Shown here: in pieces, positions 5,167-64,000 of the stretch | Layout of the letters: each line of letters starts with the position of its first letter | Position numbering within the stretch: the first letter of the stretch is position 1 | Virus record (IMG/VR): IMGVR_UViG_3300014205_005221 | Location: 122,051 to 186,050 of that record | Length of the DNA: 64,000 nucleotides | Origin: a virus | Taxonomy: Duplodnaviria; Caudoviricetes | Reading direction: 5' to 3' (one strand) | The notes under the pieces: model-generated | The model's database searches: none | Told to the model about the DNA's origin: nothing | The model's input: the letters and a program-made list of their open reading frames with translations, nothing else | Translations under genes and position numbers: made by a program

Positions 5167-5370
5167 CTACACCTCCGGAGGGAACGCCACGTCCCAACAC
5201 GACGGGCAGATACCTGACATCAGCTGCTCACGACGGTCCACACTCAGATCACTCAGAGCTTCCTGAATATGTGCACCGTGCTTCCACCGGTTGTACCCGA
5301 TCTGATCGACCTCGAACTCGTCGACCTTGTGACACGTCGGGCACTCGGAACTTACCAACAATACGGACAT
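5167..5370 (-). CDS. Small Zn-finger protein
   Basis: CPTC...IQEALSDLS.DRREQLMSGICPSCW. Confidence 0.7.
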   Translation of the reverse strand: MSVLLVSSECPTCHKVDEFEVDQIGYNRWKHGAHIQEALSDLSVDRREQLMSGICPSCWDVAFPPEV

Positions 5371-5371
5371 G

Positions 5372-5701
5372 TCACTTACCCACCGGACGCTTGCCTCCGC
5401 AAAACTGATCCCACTCGGTCATCCGCAGCAGCGGCGTCGCGCCACCACCGCTGTCGCTACGGCCCGACGACGGCGTGGCGAAACCCAGGCCATCGACACA
5501 CACCTTGGCGATGTTCGGGTACAGGTCTGCGTTGCGATACACCTCGATGTAGTCCACGTCGCTAACCACATCGACCGGAGAGCCCTCGTGGCCGCCCCGG
5601 TCACCGAGCTGCTCCGCACACCCGGTCAGCAGCGCGAGCGACAGCCCAGCGCCGACCAGAACACCCACAACACGCTTAGTCCTCACGGGGATCCCTTTCA
5701 C
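5372..5701 (-). CDS. Lipoprotein
   Basis: Signal peptide with LTGC lipobox; CGGTAG-N9-GTG. Confidence 0.75.
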   Translation of the reverse strand: MKGIPVRTKRVVGVLVGAGLSLALLTGCAEQLGDRGGHEGSPVDVVSDVDYIEVYRNADLYPNIAKVCVDGLGFATPSSGRSDSGGGATPLLRMTEWDQFCGGKRPVGK

Positions 5702-5710
5702 AACGAAGTT

Positions 5711-5866
5711 CTACCGGGGACGACGCTTCTTGCGGTCGACCACAACAGGCTTAGCAATGCTCAAAATATGCTCAGAAAACTCGCACCCGGGACGGGCGCA
5801 GTACCGCATGCTGCGCTGGGTCAGAAACTTGCCGTGACCACACTCAGGGCATTTCCATGCGCTCAC
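5711..5866 (-). CDS. Small Zn-ribbon protein
   Basis: MSAWKCPECGHG...CARPGC; GAGGAG RBS. Confidence 0.55.
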   Translation of the reverse strand: MSAWKCPECGHGKFLTQRSMRYCARPGCEFSEHILSIAKPVVVDRKKRRPR

Positions 5867-5876
5867 GGCACACTCC

Positions 5877-6380
5877 TCAGCGGTCGCCTTCGAGCAGCCG
5901 CTCGAACGCCTCGACGTTGCCCTTCGCATCGTTGACCGGGTTATGGTCATGCGGGGTCCGACGGTACTTCTTCCATCCCTGCGTGTTCGGGAAGTTGTCC
6001 TTGAGCCCGGCGTAGTAGTCCGAGATCCGACGGCCCGAGTGCCCGAACGGGTTGTCCCGATCAGCACGGTCGAACATGCCCGCGATCCACATGAAGTCGT
6101 AGGCAGGGTTGTCCGACACCAGCACCGCACGCGAACCCTCGGGAAGCACGTTCAGCAGCCACAAGCCGAGATCGATCGACACCTCCTCGTCGGAGGCGAC
6201 GCGCTCACCCACCACGGGAATCGCCGGATTCTCCGGATCCGGGTACGACTCGAACAGCCGACCGTGGAAAGTCTCTCGCGAGGTGAAGTGCACACACCCG
6301 AACTCGGTCAGCGTGCCGTTCACCGGAGACCGGCCCCGCGCTTCGCAGTCTACGAAAATCAGCTTGTCCAGGTATGCCAT
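5877..6380 (-). CDS. DEDDh 3'-5' exo(ribo)nuclease
   Basis: FVDCE...AYDF...HNPVNDA motifs. Confidence 0.85.
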   Translation of the reverse strand: MAYLDKLIFVDCEARGRSPVNGTLTEFGCVHFTSRETFHGRLFESYPDPENPAIPVVGERVASDEEVSIDLGLWLLNVLPEGSRAVLVSDNPAYDFMWIAGMFDRADRDNPFGHSGRRISDYYAGLKDNFPNTQGWKKYRRTPHDHNPVNDAKGNVEAFERLLEGDR

Positions 6381-9145: not shown

Positions 9146-9979
9146 CTACCCGTCCAGCGAGGACCGCGCGTGGCGGAGGATGTACTCGTCGAACGCCGCT
9201 CCGGAAATGTTCATAGTCTCCAACCGACCTAATGTGGTGTTACAGCTGAAACACAGCAGCTGACGAAGACACAAACCGCAGGACTGCCGACCCGGACAAC
9301 ACGCGTGGTCGTGATCCACAGCCAACCGACGATCACCCGGCGAAGCCCCACAAATGGCACAAACCCACCCCTGAGCATCCGCCATACGTTCATAATCTTC
9401 AACAGTAAGTTTATACAAAAACCAAATTCTACTTACCCAAACCTGATCTAAATAAAGCTCACGCTGATCGTCAGTCATAGAGTCATAACGAACTTTACGT
9501 TCAATTTTACGACAAACTCGGCATACGACCTGATATCCAGATTCGACCGTCTGGTCTTCATAAAAACTAAGCACAGGCTTGCTCTCACCACAGGTAAGAC
9601 ACACCCGGACGCCATCGACAACCGGGTTTTCCTGATCCTTGATCGAAGGAAGTACATAGTCCGGACCACGCCACTTCTCCGCCTGCTTGGCGTTGGCCTT
9701 GCGCTGCAGCGCGCGGGCACACGGGAGACAGCGTCCGGTAAGACGCCTACCCTCACCGCGATTCTTCTTCACCAGCTGCGCCAGCTCCATCGGAAGCTTC
9801 TCCCGGCACTGCGTGCAGGTGAACTCCGGATCCTCAGGCGTGAGGCCACGGTTGGGCTGACGCTCAGACGGCGTCTGCTTCATGCCAGGGCGGGGGATAC
9901 CCGGGCGCCCGGACCCGGGACGAGGAACTCCCTTCCCACCCTTAGACGGCGGACTGCCAACAAAAACTGCGTCTTCCAC
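9146..9979 (-). CDS. Endonuclease VII-like (His-Me finger) nuclease with N-terminal Zn fingers, possible homing endonuclease
   Basis: Q..VCAICG...LAVDHDH..C....CG.C.R.LLC..CN..LG. Confidence 0.85.
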   Translation of the reverse strand: MEDAVFVGSPPSKGGKGVPRPGSGRPGIPRPGMKQTPSERQPNRGLTPEDPEFTCTQCREKLPMELAQLVKKNRGEGRRLTGRCLPCARALQRKANAKQAEKWRGPDYVLPSIKDQENPVVDGVRVCLTCGESKPVLSFYEDQTVESGYQVVCRVCRKIERKVRYDSMTDDQRELYLDQVWVSRIWFLYKLTVEDYERMADAQGWVCAICGASPGDRRLAVDHDHACCPGRQSCGLCLRQLLCFSCNTTLGRLETMNISGAAFDEYILRHARSSLDG

Positions 9980-53084: not shown

Positions 53085-53113
53085 ACCTTACACCAGCAAG
53101 TCCAGCTTGTCAA
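53085..53113 (-). promoter_or_regulatory. Sigma70/HrdB-type promoter of the tRNA cluster
   Basis: TTGACA-N17-TAAGGT. Confidence 0.8.
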
Positions 53114-53154
53114 GCAACTTACCGGATTCAGTTTTTCCCTGTGCTGAGACTGTT

Positions 53155-57805: not shown

Positions 57806-58365
57806 GACGCCTCCCGCTCATCACGCCAGTTCGGATAGTTGAGAAACTCCGAAGCGCCCGCCTTCTCGCGAGCATCAACCCGAGCCTCATGATCGAAATC
57901 AGACTTAGGGCACTCGCCGCGCGCACCCATACGCATCCGGTCCCGCGAATTCGCCAGCTCCGCAAGCCGCACCGCAGAACGCTGATTGTTACGCAGCTTC
58001 ATCGACTCGTCCACGCGCACCGCCTCGCACGCCAGCAGCGTCCGCAGCATGTAGATCTCGTCAAGAGCGCGCGTCATATCCTTCATCGGAACCGTGTCCC
58101 GGGGAGCGACCAGACGCTCGATGACCCGGGGCTCAGCAGGCACAGAACCGCCAGGCTGCAGCCGCTCCTCCAGCCGGTCGAGGGCGGGCACCTCGAACGC
58201 GTGCGCAAGAGCCTGCGCCACCGCAGCAACCTGACGCTCGGGATGCGGCGCCAGCGGAATCACATGATTGATGCGAAGCTGCCCCACCAAGCGCCGAACG
58301 ATCTTGTCCACCAGCCAGGATCCGCCGGTATGCGAGGGCGGACGAAGGTCCGGGGTTCGAGGCAT
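57802..58365 (-). CDS. Hypothetical protein
   Basis: Packed ORF; ALDEIY.LR..LA.EA. Confidence 0.55.
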   Translation of the reverse strand: MPRTPDLRPPSHTGGSWLVDKIVRRLVGQLRINHVIPLAPHPERQVAAVAQALAHAFEVPALDRLEERLQPGGSVPAEPRVIERLVAPRDTVPMKDMTRALDEIYMLRTLLACEAVRVDESMKLRNNQRSAVRLAELANSRDRMRMGARGECPKSDFDHEARVDAREKAGASEFLNYPNWRDEREAS

Positions 58366-58368
58366 GAG

Positions 58369-58611
58369 TTAGTTGTCCTTCTTCACATCAGGGATCGGAG
58401 TGCCCGGAGGGAAATACTCCCAATCCGGGTACTCCTCGATATCCATCTCCGCGAGCGCGTCCATCCGGGATTCGCCCAGCAGCGAAACACGAGCCTCAGA
58501 CACCACCGCGCGGGCAAGCGGACCCACCGCATCGGACGCCAAGTCTCGACACCGCGCAGCGCCCGCCATCATTTCAATGATCTTTGTACGAAACTCGTCG
58601 AGTTCGCTCAC
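58369..58611 (-). CDS. Hypothetical protein
   Basis: GTGA overlap with the upstream gene. Confidence 0.55.
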   Translation of the reverse strand: MSELDEFRTKIIEMMAGAARCRDLASDAVGPLARAVVSEARVSLLGESRMDALAEMDIEEYPDWEYFPPGTPIPDVKKDN

Positions 58612-59117
58612 CGCCGGTGCTCCTCGATGATTTCGGTAAGCCGCGCGACCTCTTCGAGCAGAAACTCGATGTCCGAGCGCGAATGCGCGATGAACTCCGC
58701 ATCAGGATGACGAACACCCACGATATCAGCCCGGTAGACCCGGGGATCGCTGCGGTCGGTCGCTTCCGGTGCAACCTCGAACTTCACCATCGTGCGCGCG
58801 TCGACGATGATTCCGTCCTTGCCGAACGCCAGATGCCTATCGGTCCTGCGCTGACCCCACGAATCGAACAGATACTCGTGAACGATCTCACGACGGGTCT
58901 CGCGGTCATCAATGTGATCAGCCAGATGATCCACGTTCAGCTGCGGATCCGTCACCCGGCGGGGCACCGGCACGTGGTCGATCACCGACGTCCAGCCCAG
59001 CACAGCGCTGCGACCCACCAGCCGAGGATCAGAGTTGTCGACGTTGCCACTCCACCGCCACGGACCCGGCGTAGCCGCGCTGGCCCGCTCCCGAATCTCC
59101 GCCACCCGATCAGTCAT
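58608..59117 (-). CDS. Ead/Ea22-like protein
   Basis: AATPGPW...DAEFIAHSR.DI..LL.EV.RL. Confidence 0.75.
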   Translation of the reverse strand: MTDRVAEIRERASAATPGPWRWSGNVDNSDPRLVGRSAVLGWTSVIDHVPVPRRVTDPQLNVDHLADHIDDRETRREIVHEYLFDSWGQRRTDRHLAFGKDGIIVDARTMVKFEVAPEATDRSDPRVYRADIVGVRHPDAEFIAHSRSDIEFLLEEVARLTEIIEEHRR

Positions 59118-59467
59118 CGGAAAGACCCTTCATCGCGTAGAAGAATCCGAAAGGACCCAGGTCAACGCCCCACGCGGCCATGTTGCGGCAATACCACACA
59201 CCGAACGTCCAGTTCGTCCACGACCAGGTCAGCGCGATGTTTTCCCGCTTCACGACTCCACCTCTCGATAATCGAGATGACGAACCCCGGCCAGCACCAT
59301 CTCGCCGCAATACGGGCAGTGGTACTGACCCATAGGCACGCCGACCAGCTGCTGCGGCTCCCACGGCCACGGACAGGGCTTGCCCTCGCTATCCAACGGA
59401 GGACTCAGGTCGGGGCGCTCCGAGCAGTCAATATCCCGAGCATCAGCGGGATCGATGTCATACCAAT

Positions 59468-59854
59468 TCACGACTCCGCCTTCCACGGCCACAGCACGCT
59501 CTCCCCCGACACCCTGCGCACCACCGACAGCGGCAGCAGCGCGGGATCGCGGATGCCCCGCACCTTGACCATCACGTGCTCGGCCATAGACGACGACACC
59601 GTCTCCCCCGCTCGCCACGCATCCTGCAAAAGGTCATAGACCTCCACGCGCTCACCGGAATCGAACGTCGCCATCTCCGTCGGCGGCTCCCGATCCCAGA
59701 AACCCGGACGGGACACCGCGAACGCCTCATCGACCACCAGCGGCAGCGTTTGCATCAGCGCCGAGAGCGCGTCGACCTGGATCGAACGGCGAAACCCCGC
59801 GACCTCACGCAGCACCGCAGCGATCACCCGCTCGCGATCAAACTTCTCCACCAC
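59468..59854 (-). CDS. Hypothetical protein
   Basis: GGAGG RBS. Confidence 0.55.
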   Translation of the reverse strand: MVEKFDRERVIAAVLREVAGFRRSIQVDALSALMQTLPLVVDEAFAVSRPGFWDREPPTEMATFDSGERVEVYDLLQDAWRAGETVSSSMAEHVMVKVRGIRDPALLPLSVVRRVSGESVLWPWKAES

Positions 59855-59935
59855 GCCGCCTCCGCTCCGCCATCAGCTCCAACCGGCGCGCCCTGAACTC
59901 TTCCGCGCGAATCCGATGACGCTCATGTCGATGTT

Positions 59936-60088
59936 CTACCCGTGCAAATAAGGGAACGGATCGAACTCACCCTCCCGAACCCCCGCCAAAAACGCCAACC
60001 ACTCCGCCACCGTGAACTCCAGCACCACACCCGGATCGCCCCGCCGATACACCCGCACACGCCCGTCGGAAGTAAACGCAATTTCCAT
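59936..60088 (-). CDS. Second DUF397-like protein, N-terminally short (not in the ORF track)
   Basis: MEIAFTSDGRVRVYRRGDPGVVLEFTVAEWLAFLAGVREGEFDPFPYLHG. Confidence 0.7.
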   Translation of the reverse strand: MEIAFTSDGRVRVYRRGDPGVVLEFTVAEWLAFLAGVREGEFDPFPYLHG

Positions 60089-60273
60089 ACCACCAACTAC
60101 GACCAGGCCGCAGGCCCGTCATAACGGCGACACGGACACGGCTTCAACTTTTTATGACCATAATTGTCGTACTTGGTCAGCACCTCAGCTCGACACGGCC
60201 CCATATCCTCGTGTGCAACCCGAAAAAGCCGACAAGACCACCCGCGACAGCGGCGCCCGCAAACGCCAGATAA

Positions 60274-60597
60274 TCAAACATCGAACTTCTCAATCTCTCG
60301 AATGATCCTGGTGAACGCGCCTCTCCACTCCGTCTCTTCATTCTCCTGAGACTGCATCCGGGACTGCGCAATCTCCTCCCGGCACACAAGCTTGAGGTGT
60401 TCGCCGAGACGAGTCGACCCCTCCGCCTCCTCGTAGGCCGACAAGAGCGAAGCGAGAACCCGGTCGAACAGGTTGGGGACGACGGACTCGAACGCGGCGA
60501 ACACCTGATCCAGCGAACCATCGGGGTGCCGCGAGATCACCGCAACGTAGGCACGAGCCAGAGCGACGGCGTGCTCGGTCGACAACGGAGGCAACAT
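60274..60597 (-). CDS. Hypothetical protein
   Basis: GGGTAG-N9-ATG. Confidence 0.65.
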   Translation of the reverse strand: MLPPLSTEHAVALARAYVAVISRHPDGSLDQVFAAFESVVPNLFDRVLASLLSAYEEAEGSTRLGEHLKLVCREEIAQSRMQSQENEETEWRGAFTRIIREIEKFDV

Positions 60598-60892
60598 GCG
60601 GGTCTCCTACCCAAGATGAGAGACAGCGTTTTTGCCAGAAAATCCCAAAAAATTTGTGAACTGGAATATGGAGATTGAGGAAATTAGGAATGGGGGAGGG
60701 GGGTGCAGCAGGGGGCGCGGGGAATTGGGAGTGGGGATGTCAGAGATGAAGATGTGAGATAGAGAGAATCGGGAAAAATGGGGGACGCCTGTCCCTGCGG
60801 GCGGGCAGTTCAGATGGTGAAATGCACTAGTCGGTTTTCGAGATACGGGAAAACCCCCCGACCGGGAGGCCAGGGGGCGTAGAGCAGGACGA

Positions 60893-61183
60893 TCAGGCAG
60901 GCACCACACCGCCCAGCATCAGCATCCCATTCGCCATCGAGTAGTAGCGGGGGTAGGCGATGGCGGAGCGCAGTCGGGCCAGCACAGCGGCGGCGTCGGG
61001 GGCGTCAGCGGTGACGACGACCACGCGCATCGTCTCGGACGGGGCGGGCGCCACGGGGGCGACAGACACGCTCCCGGCGACGATCAGGGGCAGAACCTCA
61101 TCGCGCAGGACATTGGTCATCGTGGTCGACTCGGCGGCGATGGTGAGGGAGAGGGCGGCGGGGGCGTTCGTGGTGTTCGTCAT
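60893..61183 (-). CDS. MTNT cassette gene 1
   Basis: TTGACT-N17-TAAGGT-N6-ATGACGAACACC. Confidence 0.75.
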   Translation of the reverse strand: MTNTTNAPAALSLTIAAESTTMTNVLRDEVLPLIVAGSVSVAPVAPAPSETMRVVVVTADAPDAAAVLARLRSAIAYPRYYSMANGMLMLGGVVPA

Positions 61184-61236
61184 AAGACAACCTTAGCTAG
61201 CAGGGGCAAGCAAGTCAAGTATTTCAGCAAGATTTT

Positions 61237-61443
61237 TTAGCGCACGGCCCGGACGACCAGGCGTCCCGCACCGATCCACATGGGGCACACAACGCACAGG
61301 GCCAACAGGAACAGGGCGAGTTGGAACGCGGGCAGGGACAGGGCCATCAGGGCGCCACGCGTCCACACGGCCACGATCAGGCCCACCAGGAACAGGGCAA
61401 GGGCACCAACAAGGGCGAGGATTCGTGCTGCGGTGTTCGTCAT
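61237..61443 (-). CDS. MTNT cassette gene 2 (membrane protein)
   Basis: TTGACA-N17-TATTGT-N7-ATGACGAACACC. Confidence 0.75.
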   Translation of the reverse strand: MTNTAARILALVGALALFLVGLIVAVWTRGALMALSLPAFQLALFLLALCVVCPMWIGAGRLVVRAVR

Positions 61444-61449
61444 GAGTAA

Positions 61450-61710
61450 GACAATACACACAACACACCAACATGTCAAGTAATACACACATACAAACAT
61501 GTGTGACACAACACACACATAGGGCACAACACACGTACGTACACACAAGGGGGCACACGTACGCCCCCACCCACGTACAAGGGCAGGGGGTACGCACGGC
61601 ACAGGGCCCCACAGGGGGGCAGGAACAGGGGCCCTGTGTGAGGGGGCCTGTGTGAGGGGGGGGTGTAGGAAGGGCCCCCTGTGTGAGGGCCCCTCCAGGG
61701 AAGGGGGGGG
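61450..61710. repeat. CA-rich and G-run low-complexity region with CCTGTGTGAGGG x3
   Basis: Direct inspection. Confidence 0.7.
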
Positions 61711-61711
61711 G

Positions 61712-61897
61712 TTACGCCACCTGGCCCGTACGGGGGCCCGTCAGCCACAGCGTCTGGCCCTTGACCAGGGGGATGGAACGGGGCACGGGCACCATGCGCA
61801 GGGCGGCCTGCTGGGCGGCCAGGGATGCCACCGTGTACCGGCGAGGGTGCACGTAGGACACGGGGGTGGCGGAGGGGGCGTTCGTGGTGTTCGTCAT
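61712..61897 (-). CDS. MTNT cassette gene 3
   Basis: TTGCTA-N17-TAATGT-N7-ATGACGAACACC. Confidence 0.7.
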   Translation of the reverse strand: MTNTTNAPSATPVSYVHPRRYTVASLAAQQAALRMVPVPRSIPLVKGQTLWLTGPRTGQVA

Positions 61898-62008
61898 GAG
61901 TAAGACATTACAGCAAGGCAAGCAAACTAGCAAGGGGCAATTTTTCGGCCCGGAAACAGGGCACGCCAAAAAGGGCCCCCCGTGAGAGGGGCCCCGTTTG
62001 GAGGGGGG

Positions 62009-62272
62009 TCAGAAAGGGGGAGGCCCGAAAGGGGGAGGCCCGAAAACGGCCTCCGGGGAGCCGACCTCCACCAACGAGTCCAGGGGCAGGACCAACCACC
62101 CGTTGGAGAACAGAAGCCCGATCTGCGGAACCCAATATCCGGCGACCTCCCGGGAGGGGACTGGTTGGGTCTGCAGGAACATGCCGAGGTGCTCACGGCC
62201 GACCAGGACAGAGCCGAACGGGAGGGCGGAGGGGGAGGACCAGAGCTTGGCGGGGATCGCGGTGTTCGTCAT
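62009..62272 (-). CDS. MTNT cassette gene 4
   Basis: TTGCTA-N17-TAATGT-N7-ATGACGAACACC. Confidence 0.7.
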   Translation of the reverse strand: MTNTAIPAKLWSSPSALPFGSVLVGREHLGMFLQTQPVPSREVAGYWVPQIGLLFSNGWLVLPLDSLVEVGSPEAVFGPPPFGPPPF

Positions 62273-62317
62273 AGGAAGAACATTACAGCAAGGCGAGCAA
62301 ACTAGCAAGGGGCAATT

Positions 62318-62638
62318 TCAGCCGACCAAAGACTCGTCATAGGCGAAAAGCTCGTCACGAACCATCAGGCGAGCCGCCGCAACCGGCATATGGTTCGCCA
62401 CCGCGACAAAGCGGGCCCGGAACACCGCCTGTCGCGCATCCTCGTCACCAGCCGCGTAGGAGAACCCATCGGGGCCGATAGCGGCGAGCACAGCAAGCCG
62501 ATCCGAGCACGCGATCGACCGGTGCGCGTACCGAGAGTGCAGCTCCGACGACCAGCTTGCGTGCATCCGCTCGGTACAACGCTCGCGCTCGGCGATCAGA
62601 GCCTCGGAAGTGGTGGGCAGGTACACGGTGTTCGTCAT
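62318..62638 (-). CDS. MTNT cassette gene 5
   Basis: TTGACA-N17-TAATGT-N7-ATGACGAACACC. Confidence 0.75.
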   Translation of the reverse strand: MTNTVYLPTTSEALIAERERCTERMHASWSSELHSRYAHRSIACSDRLAVLAAIGPDGFSYAAGDEDARQAVFRARFVAVANHMPVAAARLMVRDELFAYDESLVG

Positions 62639-62691
62639 AGGAAGAACATTACAGCAAGGCAAGCAAGCTGTCAACCCCCGGAGGCCACCCG

Positions 62692-62958
62692 TCAGAAAGG
62701 CACGTCCGACACCGCGACCGGCTCAGAGCAAGACGCGGAACCGAACTGCTCGCACGCCACGGATCCGACGAACGAAAGCAGATCCGCGCCGCCCACCCCG
62801 GGAGCAAACAGTCGCAGCGCGAACAGGCCGTCAGCGGCCATGTCGGCGTCCAGGCCGATGACCAGGCCCTCGATGAAATACCGGGACAGGAAGGCCGACG
62901 CGGGGGCGATATCGGCGAGGGACAGGACCAGGGAGGCAACGGAGCCGGTGTTCGTCAT
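62692..62958 (-). CDS. MTNT cassette gene 6
   Basis: TTGCCT-N17-TAGTCT-N6-ATGACGAACACC. Confidence 0.7.
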   Translation of the reverse strand: MTNTGSVASLVLSLADIAPASAFLSRYFIEGLVIGLDADMAADGLFALRLFAPGVGGADLLSFVGSVACEQFGSASCSEPVAVSDVPF

Positions 62959-63144
62959 AAGCAAAGACTAGCACAGCAAGGCGAGCAAGGCAAGCATTTC
63001 AGCCAAACAAAATCCCGACCAGCACCGGCACCGCGAACAGCAGAAGCAAGAGCAGGACCCCGACCCGTTCATACCACACGTCAAACACGGGGGAACCCGC
63101 CCGGCGAGCCGCCAGACGGGCCTCCCACGATCCCGGCTCGTCCA

Positions 63145-63420
63145 TCAGAGCCAGTCGGCAAGCTCGTTGGCAGCGGCGTCGAACATCAGGTCCCGAACAC
63201 GGGCACCCGCGACGGTCGGCATGACGTGGACGGAACCGCCCCGCAGCGAACCGACGTCGACCAGCCCCTGCTTGGCGAGCTGGTCGATCGCGCGCCGGTC
63301 AACAACATCGAACCGGGACAGCAGCTTCGGGCCCGAAAGCGAGAGCAGGACCCGCATCATCGCGCGGGTGCGGGGGTCGGTGGCGAGGTCATCGGCGACA
63401 GGAGCTTCGGTGTTCGTCAT
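63145..63420 (-). CDS. MTNT cassette gene 7 (winged-helix-like)
   Basis: TTGACA-N17-TAATGT-N7-ATGACGAACACC; L..QGLV......T.AG. Confidence 0.75.
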   Translation of the reverse strand: MTNTEAPVADDLATDPRTRAMMRVLLSLSGPKLLSRFDVVDRRAIDQLAKQGLVDVGSLRGGSVHVMPTVAGARVRDLMFDAAANELADWL

Positions 63421-63459
63421 GAGCACTACATTACAGCAAGGCGAGCAAGCTGTCAAGTC

Positions 63460-63819
63460 CTAACCCTCGACCGACCGGCGGAGAAGCGCCACCGCATCGG
63501 CGAGCGTGTCGTCGAGCCAATCGAGCATGTCCGCAGCAAGCGCGTCATCGGTCCCGGCCACCGGAAACAGCATGTCGGCGGTTCGACGCTCGACCAGGTC
63601 GGGCTCGCCACGGAAGCCGAGAGCCTTGACCTCCAGCTCCGCGCCGAGCACAGCCGACGCCGACACGGACACGGTCAGGAACCGCTCGTTGCCGTCGTAG
63701 CGAGTCCAAATCCCCGATAACGATCCCGAGGGGGTCGAGAGCCCGTGCGCGGTGCACGCGTCGCCGACCGCGATCACGAAGTCGGACATGAACTCGGGGA
63801 ACGCCGTGGTGTTCGTCAT
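63460..63819 (-). CDS. MTNT cassette gene 8
   Basis: TTGCTT-N17-TAATGT-N7-ATGACGAACACC. Confidence 0.75.
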   Translation of the reverse strand: MTNTTAFPEFMSDFVIAVGDACTAHGLSTPSGSLSGIWTRYDGNERFLTVSVSASAVLGAELEVKALGFRGEPDLVERRTADMLFPVAGTDDALAADMLDWLDDTLADAVALLRRSVEG

Positions 63820-63855
63820 GAGCACAACATTACAGCAAGTCCGACAAACAAGCAA

Positions 63856-63886
63856 GCCCCGGGCCGAGACCCTTTCGGCCCGGGGC
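63856..63886 (-). terminator. GC hairpin directly upstream of the cassette 8 promoter
   Basis: GCCCCGGGCCGA-AAGGGTC-TCGGCCCGGGGC. Confidence 0.7.
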
Positions 63887-64000
63887 AGGGGACATCACCA
63901 GGACAGCGTGTACAAACCCGGGGCCTCGCGGTCGATGCAGGCATCCCGAGCCGACGGCGGAACGGGAACACGAGCATCCTTGGCGAGCGCCATCACGTCG

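Follow-up and report, generated by a model that had tools for sequence, protein, structure and literature searches.

Eight small genes at the end of a 64,000-nucleotide stretch of phage DNA begin with the same 12 bases and otherwise encode unrelated products. The stretch (hereafter the window) belongs to IMG/VR record IMGVR_UViG_3300014205_005221 and forms the final 64 kb of a contig 186,050 bp in length, labelled C1; the end of the window is also the end of the contig. C1 was binned with a 2.9-Mb actinobacterial assembly and is itself a phage genome, encoding a major capsid protein, a portal, a head protein of 3121 amino acids (aa), tail fibres, and a clamp loader. Its phage genes lie nearly all on the minus strand, and 27 tRNAs are found within the window. 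The closest isolate is Microbacterium phage Magritte, with a capsid identity of 58%. The shared 12-mer, ATGACGAACACC, which we call the tag, occurs in the window as exactly eight minus-strand copies spanning positions 61172–63819, each at the start of an open reading frame (ORF). A preliminary description of this DNA had reported an identical 12-mer at eight starts, and this holds to the base (Table 1). Chance would produce about 0.3 copies in the window when up to one mismatch is allowed, and none of 100 shuffles reached the observed count (10). The analysis described here confirms and extends that observation and partly supports the interpretation first attached to it.

Upstream of each window tag lies a promoter-like element made of TTG(A/C)(C/T)N, a 17-nt spacer, and TANNNT, followed by 6 or 7 nt and the ATG. 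These last nucleotides are pyrimidine-rich and contain no GGAGG-like run or other Shine-Dalgarno sequence, so the earlier placement of a promoter 6–7 nt before each start codon, with no ribosome-binding site in between, was correct, the upstream hexamer being TTG(A/C)(C/T)N and the spacer 17 nt. With a -10 that ends 6–7 nt before the A and a C favoured at -1, the geometry fits leaderless messages and supports the proposal that the units are self-promoted from sigma-A-type promoters with +1 on the A of the ATG. The eight tagged ORFs are 61–119 aa long. Their GC content by codon position (0.77–0.92 at third positions and ~0.5 at second positions) is like that of the capsid and portal genes, and the match at third positions argues that all eight are real coding sequences. 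As had been noted, the proteins diverge immediately after the first four residues, MTNT, and show no similarity past residue 4. The module had further been described as a fixed unit of about 50 bp. Here, only part of the description stands: TTG, TA...T, and positions +1 to +12 are invariant, but the spacer and the 6–7 nt before the ATG vary freely, and mean column identity across the modules is 63%.

The array was also expected to continue beyond the window, and it does, with 21 further units at contig positions 261–10960. Altogether, C1 carries 37 tagged units (34 exact 11-mers and three one-base variants), all on the coding (minus) strand and all behind the promoter pattern; besides the eight at the window end and these 21, eight are scattered along the contig, where some of them head larger genes of 211, 225, and 731 aa. 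Within the assembly, the tag is confined to C1. On a circular or permuted map, the units at the two contig ends would come together as a single bank of ~29, spread over roughly 14 kb. A check for circularity found no terminal overlap of 20 nt or more, and the ORF cut at position 1 has no in-frame join to the other cut end. In a public protein collection, the source contig has a stated length of 186,198 bp, which exceeds that of C1 by 148 bp, and the extra bases might show the terminal overlap of a circular genome.

The promoters are as strongly oriented as the tags. A generic pattern (TTGNNN-N16-18-TANNNT-N5-8-ATG/GTG) has 43 minus-strand matches in C1 vs two on the plus strand; 37 of the 43 are tagged, and most of the untagged minus-strand matches lead into ORFs of 3–8 codons. 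Similarly, a promoter weight matrix found 35 sites on C1, all on the minus strand and 32 of them tagged. GC-rich hairpins followed by T runs, with stems of up to 16 pairs, directly precede about half of the tagged promoters, the others having none; 59800–64000 holds 10 terminator-like sites where chance predicts 5.2, and the opposite part of the array 19 where it predicts 7.2. C1 also has a second promoter class, GGGTANRA, with 97 minus-strand and five plus-strand matches, and a divergent FliA/WhiG-like sigma factor (contig 88154–88957; TIGR02479, E = 6e-17, below the curated cut-off). With a second promoter class and a phage-encoded sigma factor of this type present, the tagged units with host-type promoters are likely to be the early class. 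Of the three untagged weight-matrix sites, one (window ~53085–53114, minus strand, score 29) lies ~10 nt before the first tRNA of the 27-tRNA array; an untagged host-type promoter in this place makes it probable that these tRNAs are transcribed together with the early units. Promoter and tag occur together at chance level in 389 genomes of the host order, 10 of which have a single match.

Conservation of the tag is a property of its nucleotides. Across the 37 units, information content is 2.0 bits at +1 to +9 and 1.4–2.0 bits at +10 to +12. The 6–7 nt before the ATG mostly reach 0.1–0.5 bits, C at -1 rising to 1.2 bits, and the promoter spacer mostly 0.0–1.1 bits, with one position at 1.5. Thus, the tag is better kept than its own promoter, which argues against recent copying of the whole module. 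All 37 C1 tags use ACG as codon 2, although it accounts for only 36% of the Thr codons of this phage; AAC follows as codon 3 in 36 of 37 tags and ACC as codon 4 in 31 of 37. The same holds in a divergent relative, IMG/VR record 3300049324_000002 (hereafter G391), a 146-kb phage genome of 49.5% GC whose capsid protein is 72% identical to that of C1. In G391, 20 leaderless units carry the tag, and their promoters follow another consensus, TTGCGT ... TGCTATGCT. All 20 tags of G391 use AAC as codon 3, vs 19% of the Asn codons in that genome; codon 4 varies, both synonymously and not (T, I, A, S), whereas the nucleotides of codons 1–3 are fixed. Synonymous sites frozen against codon usage in two phages indicate selection on the nucleotides AUGACGAACA(C) and not on the peptide. 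Accessibility of the 5′ end was considered as a reason for the exact codons and rejected, the tag ranking 26th of 32 synonymous versions for predicted openness.

Outside these two phages, the tag is found at leaderless starts on further metagenomic phage contigs of 50–69% GC, among the matches listed. It also occurs in a 112-kb, 63% GC genome outside the set of capsid relatives (IMG/VR 3300043411_000114-series, hereafter G400), where at least five genes start with the same 12 bases, two of them with leaderless geometry and at least two behind a Shine-Dalgarno-like leader. The tag is absent from ten more distant relatives (capsid 50–66% identical), from the fragment G390 (86% identical), and from Magritte. 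When IMG/VR, JGI metagenomes, and GTDB genomes were searched for the tag together with its promoter, the matches listed were mostly single chance ones, the remainder being short fragments and G400. Compared by megablast with 50,697 phage records, the array had no match. The cargo has turned over between the two tag-sharing relatives. The 37 tagged proteins of C1 are without a match in the whole of G391. No match links the tagged sets of the two phages, and the single tagged G391 protein that does match C1 does so at an untagged place.

Both phages also encode the complement of the tag. Read as minus-strand RNA, contig positions 9440–9495 of C1 are predicted to form a hairpin with a 9-bp GC outer stem, the interior of which holds GGTGTTCGTCATAAA, the exact tag complement. 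Within the array, the site belongs to a small cluster of tRNA genes, where it directly follows tRNA-Pro; the motif GGGTATAA heads this cluster, and read-through from the upstream unit is possible. In G391, the same 15 bases are enclosed by another stem, of 11 bp, and the hairpin lies in the 3′ untranslated region of a tagged unit. The exact tag complement amounts to 12–15 nt in the two predicted RNAs; in both, folding predictions leave an apical loop of 7 nt, CGUCAUA, unpaired, and a 12-bp duplex with the tag has a predicted energy of about -19.5 kcal/mol. Reverse tag copies are expected at ~0.01 per strand in 186 kb. As far as the two genomes can tell, the hairpin element has survived the turnover of all surrounding cargo. 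A second exact reverse copy of the tag is present in the window at 58707–58718 (plus strand), inside the minus-strand ORF 58608–59117, where it encodes GVRH and forms no clean hairpin; this ORF has no counterpart in G391. The guide-RNA arrays of the phage contain no anti-tag match.

The geometry and number of the units, the nucleotide-level conservation of the tag, its persistence in a divergent phage, and the complementarity of the hairpin, all of them read from sequence, point with moderate confidence to an early bank of leaderless, individually promoted genes that carry a 5′ address tag acting at the nucleotide level, its probable reader being an antisense hairpin RNA. The array in the window would be one end of a run of ~29 neighbouring early transcription units, out of 37 in the 186-kb genome of this actinobacterial phage, and expression of a unit can be rationalized into three steps. 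(i) Transcription: host RNA polymerase would start at a strong promoter of the host primary-sigma type (TTGNNN-17-TANNNT), about half of the units being insulated from the upstream unit by a strong intrinsic terminator. (ii) Loading: a start on the A of the ATG would yield an mRNA with neither leader nor Shine-Dalgarno sequence, and the 70S ribosome would load directly on the 5′-terminal AUG to translate an unrelated small cargo gene, nearly always an ORFan. (iii) Addressing: the first 11–12 transcribed bases, AUGACGAACAC(C), would serve as a sequence-specific address tag under nucleic-acid selection. Its most likely reader is the phage hairpin RNA encoded in the array, which would use the loop CGUCAUA and its flanks; by pairing, it would mask the 5′ AUGs of all these genes simultaneously and control their translation, stability, or both. 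A more general formulation, which we offer tentatively, is that a lineage of actinobacterial phages writes an 11–12-nt RNA address into the first four codons of its leaderless early mRNAs, and that one dedicated hairpin pairs with this 5′ end, including the start codon, to switch ~37 unrelated genes together, the address being kept through turnover of promoter, base composition, and cargo.

Several points weigh against a tag read by a hairpin. The hairpin is found in only two related phages, and a scan of IMG/VR with the loop 15-mer gave 64 matches, none convincing beyond G391. The GGUGUU part of the anti-tag sits in a weak inner stem of the hairpin. Since the G391 hairpin would be made together with an early unit, and read-through could produce that of C1, a timing in which a late RNA shuts off early genes is unsupported. 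The Shine-Dalgarno-like leaders of G400 indicate that the tag is not strictly tied to leaderless messages. Finally, transcription starting at the A, early timing, the hairpin RNA itself, its pairing with the tag, and the direction of its effect are predictions drawn from these patterns.

One alternative is a cis-acting RNA element that has no antisense partner, in which the tag would simply be an optimal 5′ end for 70S loading or mRNA stability in the host. Such an element would suit a tag that stands at the extreme 5′ end of predicted leaderless mRNAs, is A/C-rich, and is kept across phages with different promoters. However, the tag is among the less accessible of its synonymous versions, genomes of the host order use it at chance level, it has no complementarity of 6 nt or more to the available, assembled 5′ half of the 16S rRNA of the bin, and the conserved anti-tag hairpin would be left unexplained. 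We consider this explanation unlikely.

A little less probable still is that promoter and tag are mainly homology patches for the excision, duplication, and exchange of cargo, the conservation of the tag being a by-product of descent and gene conversion. The preliminary description had suggested that exchange of this kind could occur, by analogy with the PeSL (promoter-early stem-loop) cassettes of T4-type phages. The architecture is indeed PeSL-like (terminator stem-loop, strong host-type early promoter, ORFan, plastic region), the wholly different cargo sets of two tag-sharing phages are compatible with the idea, and a few neighbouring modules share 32–37 identical nt, units 4 and 5 sharing 35. 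Set against this, the longest identical stretch per pair of modules has a median of 13 nt, which is the tag itself; only three of 666 pairs reach 30 nt or more, and the maximum is 37. Shared stretches this short leave homology-driven exchange on a weak footing. Paralogous cargo within C1 is limited to one pair (34% identity), so recent duplication is rare. Moreover, the flanks have diverged and the tag has not, and G391, whose codon usage has drifted strongly to AAT and ACT across the genome, has kept the tag free of this change; the two together require purifying selection on the tag itself. Recombination may operate alongside a function of the tag, yet it offers no account of this resistance to codon drift.

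Selection on nucleotides could also act on DNA. Positions +1 to +12 would then bind a phage repressor as its operator, or act as a promoter-proximal element, and would be comparable with the stoperators of Cluster A mycobacteriophages, which are asymmetric 13-bp sites. An asymmetric 12-mer in ~37 copies, in one orientation to transcription and directly at promoters, has much the same appearance, but no candidate binding protein was identified, the reverse copy lies in a hairpin loop whose stems differ between the two phages, which points to RNA, and in G400 the tag also occurs far from a promoter, behind a leader. A DNA site is about as improbable as recombination modules. As for a peptide signal in which MTNT is selected as protein, for instance to direct processing, stability, or targeting, the 37 products all open with M-T-N/S and residue 4 is T in 35 of 37, but the synonymous sites invariant against codon usage in two phages, and a residue 4 that varies in G391 while the nucleotides of codons 1–3 do not, make it very improbable.

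Pfam and PHROGs searches assigned no family to any window cargo protein. Two cargo proteins searched against IMG/VR had no close relatives, and three cargo proteins subjected to word-indexed and full HMMER searches matched only themselves, apart from two low-complexity matches. For instance, the unit 8 protein is an ORFan that finds only itself among 5.8 billion proteins, the unit 7 protein is likewise an ORFan in a search of a large protein collection, and the unit 5 protein has no real relatives among 1.84 billion cluster representatives. When 28 tagged proteins were scanned against Pfam, a single one scored above its curated cut-off, an ADP-ribosylglycohydrolase (PF03747, E = 2e-34) encoded outside the window at contig 5208–6281. 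For a bank of predicted early ORFans, a role in host takeover or anti-defence would be plausible.

The units in the window and the features between them are listed in Table 1 in the direction of transcription. Unit 7 is the sole two-gene unit. The ORF of unit 4 has a C-terminal repeat derived from a 15-nt tandem repeat, and that of unit 2, being hydrophobic, likely encodes a membrane protein. The non-coding stretch between units 3 and 2 holds a 14-nt tandem repeat, AGGGGGCCTGTGTG (2.4 copies), and several terminator-like hairpins; it could be an RNA element or a terminator stack, and an Rfam scan of 58000–64000, which includes it, gave no match. Beyond the array boundary, the first gene has a promoter of the -10-only class and is again leaderless by geometry.

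Table 1. Tagged units and neighbouring features at the end of the window (window positions; all on the minus strand)
Feature	Position	-35	-10	-10 to ATG (nt)	Tag	A of ATG	Remarks
Intrinsic terminator hairpin	63856–63886						12 pairs, 11 of them G-C; T-rich tail enters the -35 of unit 8
Unit 8	63460–63855	TTGCTT 63850–63855	TAATGT 63827–63832	7	63808–63819	63819	ORF of 119 aa, ending at 63460
Unit 7	62999–63456	TTGACA 63451–63456	TAATGT 63428–63433		63409–63420	63420	ORF of 91 aa, ending at 63145
Second ORF of unit 7	63145–62999						48 aa, hydrophobic, untagged; coupled by TGATG overlap
Weak terminator-like hairpin and T run	63015–63028						Between units 7 and 6
Unit 6	62692–62993	TTGCCT 62988–62993	TAGTCT 62965–62970	6	62947–62958	62958	ORF of 88 aa
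Unit 5	62318–62674	TTGACA 62669–62674	TAATGT 62646–62651	7	62627–62638	62638	ORF of 106 aa
Unit 4	62009–62308	TTGCTA 62303–62308	TAATGT 62280–62285	7	62261–62272	62272	ORF of 87 aa
Terminator-like hairpin and T run	61976–61990						After unit 4
Unit 3	61712–61933	TTGCTA 61928–61933	TAATGT 61905–61910	7	61886–61897	61897	ORF of 61 aa
Non-coding stretch	61480–61711						232 nt, C-rich (minus strand); separates units 3 and 2
Unit 2	61237–61479	TTGACA 61474–61479	TATTGT 61451–61456	7	61432–61443	61443	ORF of 68 aa
Unit 1	60893–61218	TTGACT 61213–61218	TAAGGT 61190–61195	6	61172–61183	61183	ORF of 96 aa; last unit of the array
Array boundary	60598–60892						295-nt non-coding spacer, pyrimidine-rich on the minus strand; terminator-like site at 60782–60795
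Second-class promoter	60605–60612						GGGTAGGA, then 7 nt and ATG; ahead of gene 60274–60597

Arrays of self-promoted early ORFans are where phages keep genes for host takeover and counter-defence, and a rule that marks the members of such a class would ease the finding of these genes in uncultured phages. If the address tag and its hairpin work as proposed, the control of leaderless translation through a word at the coding start and an antisense hairpin would be a mechanism not described before. It would provide a simple, testable system for the regulation of 70S initiation on 5′-terminal AUGs, and promoter plus tag would make a compact expression part for actinobacterial hosts.

Individual elements of the proposed system have counterparts in hosts and phages. 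Actinobacterial leaderless mRNAs reportedly have a -10 TANNNT 6–7 nt before an ATG or GTG and no Shine-Dalgarno sequence, which is the arrangement seen in C1. The leaderless genes of the host are not known to have a downstream sequence in common; in contrast, 37 genes here share 12 nt. Along the same lines, c4 of phages P1 and P7 is a small structured phage antisense RNA that masks an initiation region, and the C1 hairpin would resemble it as a candidate structured phage RNA with a loop complementary to a translation-initiation region, known here from its sequence. The c4 RNA acts in one operon, on a site that contains a Shine-Dalgarno sequence, whereas the target here would be the 5′ end of ~37 predicted leaderless mRNAs. 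Magritte (OR553905) offers a parallel in the closest isolate. At ~87–98 kb, it has a repeated promoter-like word (GTTAGCGCGTA...), a small hairpin, and the leader CCCCACGAAGGGAATCAC 2–4 nt before ATG, in eight copies. As in C1, the small genes of a run thus each follow a recurring promoter-like word and a conserved word that is private to the phage, but the second Magritte word is a leader with a Shine-Dalgarno-like GAAGGG, and the MTNT tag is missing. On this comparison, the Magritte modules are a leadered analogue of the tag system.

Two described systems come closest. The first is the PeSL cassettes of the T4-type phages RB49 and phi1, which recombine, form mini-circles, and show module-bounded indels (Arbiol et al. 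2010, PMC2839356). Like these, the C1 units are ORFans densely arrayed in a part of the genome that is plastic and non-structural, every one of them has a predicted strong early promoter for the host sigma factor, and the edge of the array towards other gene classes is predicted to be transcriptionally insulated; terminator-like stem-loops stand beside about half of the C1 promoters. A sigma-70-type promoter directly upstream of an ORFan, itself a PeSL feature, is predicted for all eight window units and for the 37 of C1. PeSLs keep ~100 bp conserved outside the gene, with a Shine-Dalgarno sequence at the 3′ end (PMC2839356). Here, in contrast, no Shine-Dalgarno sequence or leader is present, only 6–7 pyrimidine-rich nt separating the -10 from the ATG; what is invariant falls within the coding sequence, modules have only short stretches in common, and both the phage lineage and the host phylum are different. 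The second system is the start-associated sequences (SAS/ESAS) of Cluster K mycobacteriophages, in which a 13-bp word, GGGATAGGAGCCC, with a Shine-Dalgarno-like AGGAG, lies 3–7 bp upstream of starts (Pope et al. 2011, PMC3203893). The tag shares with SAS the character of a phage-private, asymmetric word at the starts of unrelated non-structural gene families, in one orientation, absent from the host, and kept among relatives. Four described Cluster K genomes have a single SAS copy in the opposite orientation (PMC3203893), and a reverse copy of the word is likewise present in C1. Unlike SAS, the tag begins at the start codon of a predicted leaderless message, encodes the first four residues, has no Shine-Dalgarno sequence, is unrelated in sequence, and is accompanied by a matching hairpin. 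In summary, the closest described relatives of the C1 system, as judged from its predicted architecture, are PeSLs, for the layout of the array, and the SAS of Cluster K, and it differs from both.

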